A stretch of 64,000 nt of DNA, taken from IMG/VR virus record IMGVR_UViG_3300020477_000001, positions 32,001-96,000 of that record. The stretch is one strand, 5' to 3'. The translations under genes and the position numbers were made by a program. Source of the stretch: a virus. This document shows, one piece after another, positions 31,676-61,301 of this stretch (position 1 is the stretch's first letter; every line of letters starts with the position of its first letter). The notes beneath the pieces were generated by a model, which ran no database searches, was not told the origin of the DNA, and worked only from the letters and a program-made list of their open reading frames with translations.

Positions 31676-32080
31676 TGGTGGAGGCGAGGGGAGTCGAACC
31701 CCTGTCTTTAAAACCATCTGCTCAGATATACTACAAGCTTAGTTAGTGTTAATTTTCGTGCTTCGTCACTAACAACTACACACGAGGTTGGAGGCACTTT
31801 ATTTATACTAGACTCCTCGCCCTTCCTAGTTTTTTTTGCTCGTTATCGACGCCCTAGCTCCTTAACGAGCATCCAGAGTAGGACGGGTAGCTTACGCAGC
31901 TACAGCAGCTTCTTCAGCCCAGCCGTGCTTAGCGAGGATCGCGTCAGCTTCGGCAACCGAAGGAGCCATATCAACGTTATTATTGGCAGTTGAATACCTA
32001 GATAGATGATTAAAGAGGCCCGCTATCATCCTCTGCTTGCAATCTTGCGTAAGGCTCTAAATCGAAACCAGTACGCCCCC
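31676..32080 (-). ncRNA. ssrA: tmRNA
   Basis: 5' GGGGGCGUACUGGUUUCGAU; 3' T-arm GGGGUUCGACUCCCC plus CGCCUCCACCA; G3-U pair; tag ORF 31987-31892 ending AVAA-stop. Confidence 0.95.
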
Positions 32081-58064: not shown

Positions 58065-58142
58065 TTGCATATCCTAACTTTCTTTAGGATAAATTAGATA
58101 CAAAACCCCCCGCGAAGGGGGGCTTGCATATCCAACTTTCTT
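58065..58142. repeat. Imperfect direct repeat TTGCATATCC(T)AACTTTCTT flanking the terminator hairpin
   Basis: Copies at 58065-58084 and 58124-58142. Confidence 0.8.
58101..58125 (-). terminator. Probable intrinsic terminator
   Basis: GCCCCCC-UUCGC-GGGGGGU followed by UUUGU. Confidence 0.65.
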
Positions 58143-58410
58143 CTAGGGCTTTTTTTGTTAAGGTGTAAGCATCACCGATACGCATCGATAATATCGAAGT
58201 CATCTCCCATACAGGGTGAGAAACTGTGCTTAAAAACTCATTACAATGACTAACCACAACACGCCGGGGTATTGCGATGGGAATTACCCATCAGTTTTTT
58301 GTTAAAGCCGCCTTTCGAATGAAGCTGATGGCGCAGCTACCGCGATGGTCATTCTTAGGAAACCCTACCGTTTACTCTCGGCGGGCTAAAGGAGGTTCTG
58401 ACCCCTTGAT
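58101..58410 (-). ncRNA. Candidate ~310-nt structured RNA / regulatory leader
   Basis: Own promoter (58416-58444) and terminator; G-U-containing stems; duplicated UUAACAAAAAA linker. Confidence 0.55.
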
Positions 58411-58415
58411 GGCCG

Positions 58416-58444
58416 AAGGTATATGTTTTTTTAATGTCAGTCAA
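58416..58444 (-). promoter_or_regulatory. Sigma70-type promoter TTGACT-17-TACCTT driving the non-coding region
   Basis: Same family as the other promoters, TTAAAAAAA spacer. Confidence 0.6.
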
Positions 58445-60607: not shown

Positions 60608-60721
60608 ATGCAATCCATTCTAACGCTTGCAATTATACTTTTCCCTTTTGCAATTTTATTTTTAACCGCATTTCTCATAATTGATTTATTCGTGGACTTG
60701 TTTAATGATTTGGGAAAGTAG
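60608..60721 (+). CDS. 37-aa hydrophobic membrane peptide (not in track)
   Basis: MQSILTLAIILFPFAILFLTAFLIIDLFVDLFNDLGK; stop lies in the tRNA 5' end. Confidence 0.4.
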   Translation: MQSILTLAIILFPFAILFLTAFLIIDLFVDLFNDLGK

Positions 60722-60788
60722 CTCAACTGGATAGAGCAACGGTCTTCTAAACCGTAGGTTCTGGGTTCAAGTCCCAGCTTTCCTGCCA
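60712..60788 (+). tRNA. tRNA-Arg(UCU)
   Basis: Cloverleaf; anticodon arm ACGGT-CTTCTAA-ACCGT; encoded CCA. Confidence 0.95.
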
Positions 60789-60795
60789 GACTTGC

Positions 60796-60870
60796 GGGCG
60801 GTTAACTCAGCGGTAGAGTGTCTCGTTTACACCGAGGTTGTCGGGGGTTCGAATCCCTCACCGCCTACCA
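60796..60870 (+). tRNA. tRNA-Val(UAC)
   Basis: Cloverleaf; TCTCG-TTTACAC-CGAGG; GTTCGAATC; CCA. Confidence 0.95.
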
Positions 60871-60878
60871 TTTTTAAA

Positions 60879-61301
60879 ATGAAAGTTAAATACAAAAAAC
60901 TAAACGACGACGCAATCACTCCAGTTCAAGCGACTAGCGGTGACGCGGGTAATGACTTGTTCTCCACCGAAACAGTTGAGCTAGACCCGCTTCAAAGGAA
61001 GATCGTTAAAACTGGAATTTCTGTAGCCATCCCAGAAGGATACTATGGAAGAGTAGCGCCTCGCAGCGGGCTAGCAGTTAAGCATGGAATAGATGTTTTA
61101 GCTGGCGTGATAGACGCTGGCTACCGAGGCGAAGTCGGAGTAGTGCTAATTAACTTTTCCTCAGATAAAGTAATCTTTGAAAAAGGCTCTAAAATAGCTC
61201 AGCTAATAATAGAAAAGTGCCACGCAACAGAATGGGAAGAAGTTAGCAACCTTTCTGAAACCGAAAGGCTTGATGCAGGTTTTGGTAGCACTGGAGTTTA
61301 A
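60879..61301 (+). CDS. dut: dUTPase (trimeric)
   Basis: AG.DL, APRSGLA, GVIDAGYRGE, IAQL, R..AGFGSTG; true start ATG 60879. Confidence 0.95.
   Translation: MKVKYKKLNDDAITPVQATSGDAGNDLFSTETVELDPLQRKIVKTGISVAIPEGYYGRVAPRSGLAVKHGIDVLAGVIDAGYRGEVGVVLINFSSDKVIFEKGSKIAQLIIEKCHATEWEEVSNLSETERLDAGFGSTGV

Follow-up and report, generated by a model that had tools for sequence, protein, structure and literature searches.

The window analysed here is a stretch of 64,000 nucleotides, bases 32001-96000 of the complete 158,301-bp genome of an uncultivated virus with direct terminal repeats. On its minus strand, between an ORF that we call F0 and a dNMP kinase gene, lies a gap occupied by a predicted RNA gene. 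The features of the gap and its surroundings are as follows, in window coordinates.

58934-58437, minus strand: F0, a 165-aa ORF directly upstream of the RNA gap
58444-58416, minus strand: sigma-70-type promoter with a -35 element TTGACT (58444-58439), a 17-nt spacer and a -10 element TACCTT (58421-58416)
58409-58102, minus strand: RNA gene of 308 nt, with promoter and intrinsic terminator
58147-58123, minus strand: X1, a purine block plus the 3′ strand of the long-range helix P13
58122-58102, minus strand: intrinsic terminator, CCCCCC-UUCGC-GGGGGG (58122-58106; RNA 315-320/326-331) followed by UUUU
58091-58064, minus strand: X2, which repeats the purine block and P13 3′ strand just past the terminator
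58045-57821, minus strand: 74-aa ORF between the RNA and the kinase
57824-57222, minus strand: dNMP kinase gene (PHROG 139), 3′ of the 74-aa ORF
31676-32080, minus strand: tmRNA (Rfam RF00023, 131 bits; also called by ARAGORN)
60712-60870, strand not given: two tRNAs (Rfam)

The RNA locus is a point of divergent transcription inside a nucleotide-metabolism cluster, and the usual gene order across relatives is F0, RNA, and kinase. F0 was assigned neither a Pfam nor a PHROG family, and its weak winged-helix-like leads (HxlR, Rep_O, and SgrR_N) all score below 0.9, the reliability line of the tool. Its family is conserved immediately 5′ of both types of RNA discussed below, group A, to which the window copy belongs, and group B. 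No counterpart of the 74-aa ORF was seen at the 33 other family loci examined; there the RNA is followed at once by the kinase or by another gene. Elsewhere in the window, the tag predicted for the phage-encoded tmRNA (31676-32080), ANNNVDMAPSVAEADAILAKHGWAEEAAVAA, is unusually long. A dUTPase-like ORF (60792-61301, plus strand) is listed with a TTG start that overlaps tRNA-Val (60796-60870); the true start of this ORF is probably the internal MKVKYKKL.

The original prediction placed a promoter at 58416-58444, firing into a gap that ends in a terminator, and both elements hold up among the homologues. A TTGAC(A/T/G) -35 element with a -10-like hexamer 16-18 nt downstream is found in about 30 of 34 homologue representatives; the -10 of the window genome (TACCTT) is weak. 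The -10-like hexamer ends 17-29 nt ahead of a conserved UUAAGC, and from this spacing we infer that transcription starts at the foot of the first hairpin, near 58409. Because the promoter is conserved, of sigma-70 type, and the RNA's own, host RNA polymerase could transcribe the RNA without phage factors. At the other end, a C-run/G-run hairpin closes every member, usually with 4-5 U within 6 nt after the stem, and the terminator is 96.7% paired in the model alignment. Conservation of both a promoter and a Rho-independent terminator is what an sRNA gene would be expected to display. The transcript, its ends, and its stability are predicted from these sequence elements. The size of about 310 nt first proposed agrees with the 308 nt found here and with the family range of 308-381 nt from P1 to the U tract, in which the window copy is the shortest.

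Homologues and the alternative RNA of sister phages

Relatives of the kinase in IMG/VR led to the family: many related phages retain a 400-500-nt non-coding gap 5′ of the kinase gene, and nhmmer divides these gaps into two unrelated conserved elements, group A with the window copy and group B. Homologues of group A were sought with a degenerate pattern derived from the P2 hairpin. In IMG/VR the pattern matched 37 stretches, all 37 of which were confirmed by profile search (one is truncated at a contig end), and the IMG/VR homologues amount to 41 distinct sequences after duplicate removal, 35 of them at less than 95% identity. In marine and other metagenomes 110 stretches matched; of the 80 metagenome loci examined, 65 fit the covariance model and at least 60 span the whole of it, and Tara Oceans assemblies supplied many of the metagenome copies. 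In a set of 185,579 prokaryote genomes the pattern matched 13 stretches, only one of which is a family member. This full-length copy (L132:3779-4185, 193 bits) comes from a contig of 44 kb assigned to an uncultured Pseudomonadales MAG, and the contig is either a mis-binned phage contig or, at best, a weak hint of the host. The cultured-phage collection, searched by DNA and by kinase protein, gave no match, so that no cultivated relative or host is at hand. The 158-kb genome itself contains one significant copy of the RNA.

Known families did not account for the gap. Rfam 15 returned no match at gathering thresholds, which agrees with the novelty first proposed, and at E ≤ 10 the best scores in the gap were 15-20 bits against thresholds of 40-117. 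Neither ARAGORN nor Rfam placed a tRNA or tmRNA there. The family is therefore undescribed relative to Rfam 15 and the literature searched. It may be among the unnamed candidates of Fremin et al. 2023 (PMC10690425), a catalogue of candidate structured RNAs from IMG/VR.

Group B is a different conserved non-coding RNA of about 420 nt that sits between an F0 homologue (31% identical, E 4e-26) and the dNMP kinase in sister phages, that is, in the same slot as group A. It was delimited at L005:3487-3996 (strand not given) and occurs also in L027, L045, L024, L050, L055, L031, L038, L012, L034, L016, L011, L018, L025, L014, and L049. The element is very conserved, has its own promoter-like sequence, and shows some covariation; an internal purine-rich segment recurs in it past a terminator-like hairpin. 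Rfam gave no match to the element, permissive thresholds included. The idea that group B is a divergent member of group A was rejected, as the group A covariance model does not detect it. No group A copy was found in four partial group B genomes (27-57% complete).

Fold, covariation and the duplicated segment

The fold supported by the homologues is compact and conserved, with about a dozen helices, four pseudoknots, and several nearly invariant single-stranded loops (AGAGNAAW, GUUUCC, AAUACCCCG, and the purine block). RNA positions are counted as 58437 minus the window coordinate, helix names are our own, and all of the following elements are on the minus strand.

58407-58389 (RNA 30-35/43-48), minus strand: P1 hairpin, AAGGGG/CCUCCUU with a 7-nt loop
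58386-58362 (RNA 51-58/67-75), minus strand: P2, GCCCGCCG/CGGUAGGGU with the conserved loop AGAGUAAA
58338-58309 (RNA 100-103/110-113; loop 104-107:125-128), minus strand: pseudoknot 1, AGCUG/CAGCU with loop pairing CGCC:GGCG
58297-58294 with 58224-58221 (RNA 140-143:213-216), minus strand: pseudoknot 3, AAAC at the end of an A-rich linker with the P9 loop
58292-58276 (RNA 145-150/156-161), minus strand: P6 hairpin, GAUGGG/CCCAUC
58275-58263 (RNA 162-163/173-174), minus strand: C-loop hairpin, a 2-bp GC/GC stem with the nearly invariant loop AAUACCCCG
58262-58198, minus strand: three-way junction domain, comprising the strands of pseudoknot 4, P8, P9, and P10
58262-58258 with 58230-58226 (RNA 175-179:207-211), minus strand: pseudoknot 4, GUGUU:AGCAC, from mutual information
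58251-58245 with 58204-58198 (RNA 186-192/233-239), minus strand: P8, AGUCAUU/GAUGACU, closing the three-way junction
RNA 197-200/217-220, minus strand: P9, UGAG/CUCA
RNA 222-224/229-231, minus strand: P10, within the three-way junction
58197-58185 (RNA 240-244/248-252), minus strand: P11 hairpin, UCGAU/AUCGA
58184-58177 with 58132-58125 (RNA 253-260/305-312), minus strand: P13 long-range helix, UGCGUAUC/GAUAUGCA
RNA 261-264/272-275, minus strand: P12, stem GGUG/CACC
RNA 267-270:286-289, minus strand: pseudoknot 2, the 3′ H-type pseudoknot, GCUU:AAGC

Covariation among homologues, which had been proposed as a check on the RNA, gave a strong compensatory signal. The seed alignment covers the 3′ two-thirds of the RNA in 34 sequences, pseudoknots included, and 93.9% of its cells are paired compared with 76.6% after shuffling. 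Changes on both sides occur in 35 of its 49 pairs, and the covariation score of 0.55 (0.23 shuffled, 0.08-0.13 slid) was reached by none of 500 shuffles. A larger set of 65 distinct sequences, mostly metagenomic and outside the seed, was aligned by the model and is, by this construction, biased towards the structure; in it 96.9% of cells are paired (74.9% shuffled, 42-48% in slid controls), 28 of 36 pairs are compensatory, and compensatory cells number 509 against 144 shuffled, again with 0/500 shuffles. Over both alignments the covariation score is 0.55-0.63, compared with 0.23 for shuffled and 0.07-0.13 for slid controls. Compensatory change in excess of both kinds of control is the mark of a structured RNA. 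Helices that shift register were assessed by comparing complementarity within a genome (own) with that between genomes (cross), using 5000 permutations.

In the 5′ part, an AAAGG...CCUUU hairpin (P1) is present in most members and is conserved yet barely covarying; its loop in many members may resemble a T-loop (U..RA). P2 covaries at two pairs (UA 25/CG 6, and UA 22/CG 6 plus GC, AU, and GU), and its loop reads AGAGNAAW in most members. In a variable region there is either a GAGAC...GUC hairpin or a 3-bp stem whose loop is GAAGNAAAGUA, and P5 is an optional hairpin absent from the window copy. The complementarity of pseudoknot 1 is genome-specific (own 11.76 vs cross 10.82, 44/5000), with variants such as GAGCCA:UGGCUC, AUGGUA:UACCAU, GGCA:UGCC, and UGGUC:GACC. 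This pairing replaces the first of two tandem H-type pseudoknots in the original prediction, in which AGCUGC/GCGGCU was combined with CCAUCAG:CUGAUGG; the homologues favour AGCUG/CAGCU with CGCC:GGCG instead. The second, 3′ unit (GGUG/CACC with GCUU:AAGC) stood, with 7/5000 permutations and the variants GGCUA:UAGCC and CCCA:UGGG. Each stem was said to be followed by an identical linker, and UUAACAAAAAA does occur twice (58305-58295 and 58161-58151), but the roles of the two A-rich connectors differ: the first pairs with the P9 loop in pseudoknot 3, and the second is loop 3 of the 3′ pseudoknot.

In the central part, pseudoknot 3 exchanges AU for GC (AU 25/GC 7 and AU 21/GC 13), as in AAAAAAC with GUUUC compared with AAAGGAC with GUCCC. 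In the GAUGGG/CCCAUC hairpin anticipated at the outset, now P6, 99.5% of cells are paired and each position shows 4-5 pair types. The proposed AGUCAUU/GAUGACU stem is likewise sustained as P8, in which both sides change at 7 of 7 pairs, as they do at 5 of 5 pairs in P11. A companion stem, GGUCA/UGACC, is lost in the homologues. The short stem of the C-loop hairpin varies as well (GC 54/AU 10, and CG 44/AU 7/UA 2). For its C-rich loop AAUACCCCG no partner was found, and pairing with the G-run of the terminator gave no genome-specific signal. Pseudoknot 4 is 88-93% paired in the seed alignment. A second subclass has hairpins in place of both of its strands, one of them capped by GAAA, in what looks like a tetraloop-receptor swap.

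In the 3′ domain (58184-58123), P13 encloses P12, pseudoknot 2 (58176-58148), and the single-stranded purine block. All four pairs of P12 covary. P13 is strongly genome-specific (own 15.4 vs cross 12.3, 0/5000) and appears in most single-sequence MFE folds. The lower stem of the terminator reaches into X1, and this extended pairing of the 3′ tail with X1 is also genome-specific (0/5000).

X1 is duplicated beyond the terminator as X2. The two share an exact 21-mer that is unique in the genome, and their similarity is specific to each genome (14.06 vs 9.46, 0/5000), such that the copies co-evolve within genomes. X2 accompanies the RNA module to other loci and retains some complementarity to the 5′ strand of P13 (42/5000 and 149/5000). 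Three other possibilities for these segments were set aside. X as a genome-wide promoter motif was rejected since X occurs only at the RNA locus; a 5′-3′ closing helix between J1/2 (CUUUAAGC) and X2 (GCUUAAAG) is perfect in a few members and overall not significant (756/5000); and a hairpin of the terminator tail with X2 is not significant either (1309/5000). A simple model of a terminated stable RNA leaves X2 unaccounted for. The conservation of X2 past the terminator suggests that read-through or a role at the DNA level matters, and X2 might serve as a spare strand for a read-through isoform, as a protein site, or as an iteron-like DNA site.

Alternative readings of the locus

The last of these ideas leads to a reading of the whole locus as a replication-origin module, in which the transcript primes or activates replication, X1 and X2 are iteron-like DNA sites, and F0 is the binding factor. 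Direct repeats do flank a GC-rich palindrome beside AT-rich DNA, the locus is the point of divergent transcription noted above, the faint leads for F0 include winged-helix and Rep_O-like ones, and F0 is also found 5′ of the alternative RNA in sister phages. However, GC skew has no inflection at the locus, P13 places a constraint on X1 at the RNA level, F0 does not leave the kinase when the RNA relocates, and the hints for F0 fall under the reliability line of the tool. Priming, moreover, does not need an elaborate fold with four pseudoknots. We regard an origin as improbable.

The original prediction also offered a cis-acting leader, a riboswitch-like element or attenuator governing read-through to the dNMP kinase operon. 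The RNA does lie directly 5′ of the kinase in the same orientation in most genomes, and in some members the terminator would be read through (tails such as UAUU and UGUU). The relocated modules argue against this reading. In five relatives (L112, L106, L120, L089, and L030) the RNA, its terminator, and X2 are flanked by two other gene families, with F0 and the kinase still together, and in at least three further relatives (L104, L103, and L090) the gene after the RNA module is convergent. Because the module is found at other loci or ahead of convergent genes, it has no constant downstream gene. Several kinase genes have promoter-like sequences of their own after X2. The proposed switch fares no better: CCAUCAG:CUGAUGG, which would exclude the P6 hairpin, is available as a 7-bp alternative pairing in the window genome and is not conserved (own 11.47 vs cross 11.50, 2676/5000), and it appears to be a coincidence private to that genome. 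Anti-termination through pairing of an ACCCC loop with the GGGG run of the terminator was rejected as well, there being neither covariation nor a genome-specific signal. With neither a constant 5′ UTR position nor a conserved mutually exclusive pairing among the homologues, a leader function is very improbable.

Another role in trans was considered on the strength of an 11-nt segment, GUGUUGUGGUU, that is complementary over its whole length to the handle GGRACURCAACAC in the window genome. The RNA would then be a tracrRNA-like helper of a TnpB-derived RNA-guided system, docking through this segment on the handle. The handle occurs in 17 plus-strand copies at 120197-124682 of the G000 genome, outside the window, as one regular array plus scattered units. 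The distribution of the effector speaks against such a helper: just 2 of 13 RNA-bearing genomes encode it, two of these genomes that are 96-100% complete do not, and in the relative G010 (L022), which does have the effector, the RNA is of the subclass without the GUGUUGUGGUU segment. Within the RNA, the first five bases of the segment form pseudoknot 4 with AGCAC, and the next bases include the family's invariant GG, so that family-wide constraints explain most of the segment. Coincidence is the simplest account of the match to the handle, and we consider the helper reading extremely improbable.

That the gap encodes small proteins and no RNA, as ORFs of 31-67 aa that can be drawn in it might suggest (a 67-aa one on the plus strand and short ones on the minus strand), has a negligible chance of being correct: homologues do not agree in the strand, frame, or length of their longest ORFs, the 67-aa ORF extends over the end of the gene upstream, and substitutions are compensatory across helices rather than placed at third codon positions. 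No ORF is conserved in length or frame among the homologues, the median sense ORF is 32.5 aa, and the longest ORF closed inside the window RNA is 32 aa. ORFs this inconsistent, together with compensatory substitutions, make coding very unlikely, and the non-coding character first ascribed to the gap is upheld.

Likeness to known RNAs and possible function

Very probably, then, the locus is a free-standing gene whose product, a non-coding RNA of about 308 nt, is stable and highly structured and is the first example of an undescribed phage family. A novel, independently promoted and terminated sRNA had been one of the two options put forward at the start; the conserved promoter and terminator, the covariation, the empty Rfam searches, and the lack of a conserved ORF lend it strong support at the level of sequence. 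The RNA could be transcribed by the host polymerase, probably early in infection, and would act in trans as a folded molecule.

Several known systems share traits with this RNA. GOLLD and ROOL are large "ornate" orphan RNAs linked to phages and prophages, and the IMES motifs come from marine metagenomes. With these and HEARO, the family has in common its comparative discovery in metagenomic and phage DNA, its free-standing gene, its carriage by phages, and a complex, multi-helix, pseudoknotted fold with invariant loops. In Rfam 15, however, it matches none of them in sequence or structure, and at about 310-380 nt it is smaller than ROOL (about 580 nt) and GOLLD (about 800 nt) and does not adjoin tRNA genes. 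The tmRNA encoded by the same phage genome is of similar size and also combines several H-type pseudoknots with A-rich connecting strands, but the new RNA lacks both a tRNA-like acceptor/T-arm domain and a reading frame for a tag, and it is recognised as tmRNA by neither ARAGORN nor Rfam. Riboswitches and attenuators are likewise structured, end in an intrinsic terminator, and often lie 5′ of a metabolic gene; the RNA differs from them in having no constant downstream gene and no conserved exclusive pairing and in being far larger than typical aptamers.

In terms of function, the likeliest parallel is with protein-sequestering RNAs. 6S RNA, CsrB/RsmZ, and Y RNAs are stable, act in trans, and bind protein through a folded shape or through repeated single-stranded motifs. 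We tentatively favour a role as scaffold or decoy for a protein of the host or the phage. The phage RNA lacks the architectures that define these RNAs: it has no 6S central bubble, no multiple GGA hairpins, no Ro-binding stem, and no Rfam match to them. The purine block beside the terminator and U tail presumably resembles an Hfq-binding module, which we take as a lead only. Action by base pairing through the exposed C-rich loop seems unlikely, and a ribozyme would be a still less likely identity if taken alone. A bolder proposal, possible though doubtful, is that the RNA represents a new ornate phage class, either a ribozyme or an RNA that, early in infection, binds a host factor and neutralises or redirects it. 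Group B would be its interchangeable counterpart in the same slot, in the way of anti-defence and host-takeover genes, and X2 would give rise to a second, read-through isoform.

Beyond the classical examples, few large, intricately folded RNAs are known, and new classes have tended to bring new biology or RNA architecture to light. The RNA described here is common in ocean viromes, and its carriers, uncultivated phages as large as about 180 kb, also encode tmRNA, tRNA genes, and in some cases an RNA-guided system. With more than 100 sequences, the alignment is deep enough for structure determination and for an Rfam-grade model. The slot shared by two unrelated RNAs and the duplicate beyond the terminator offer concrete experimental handles on the structured RNAs of these phages.
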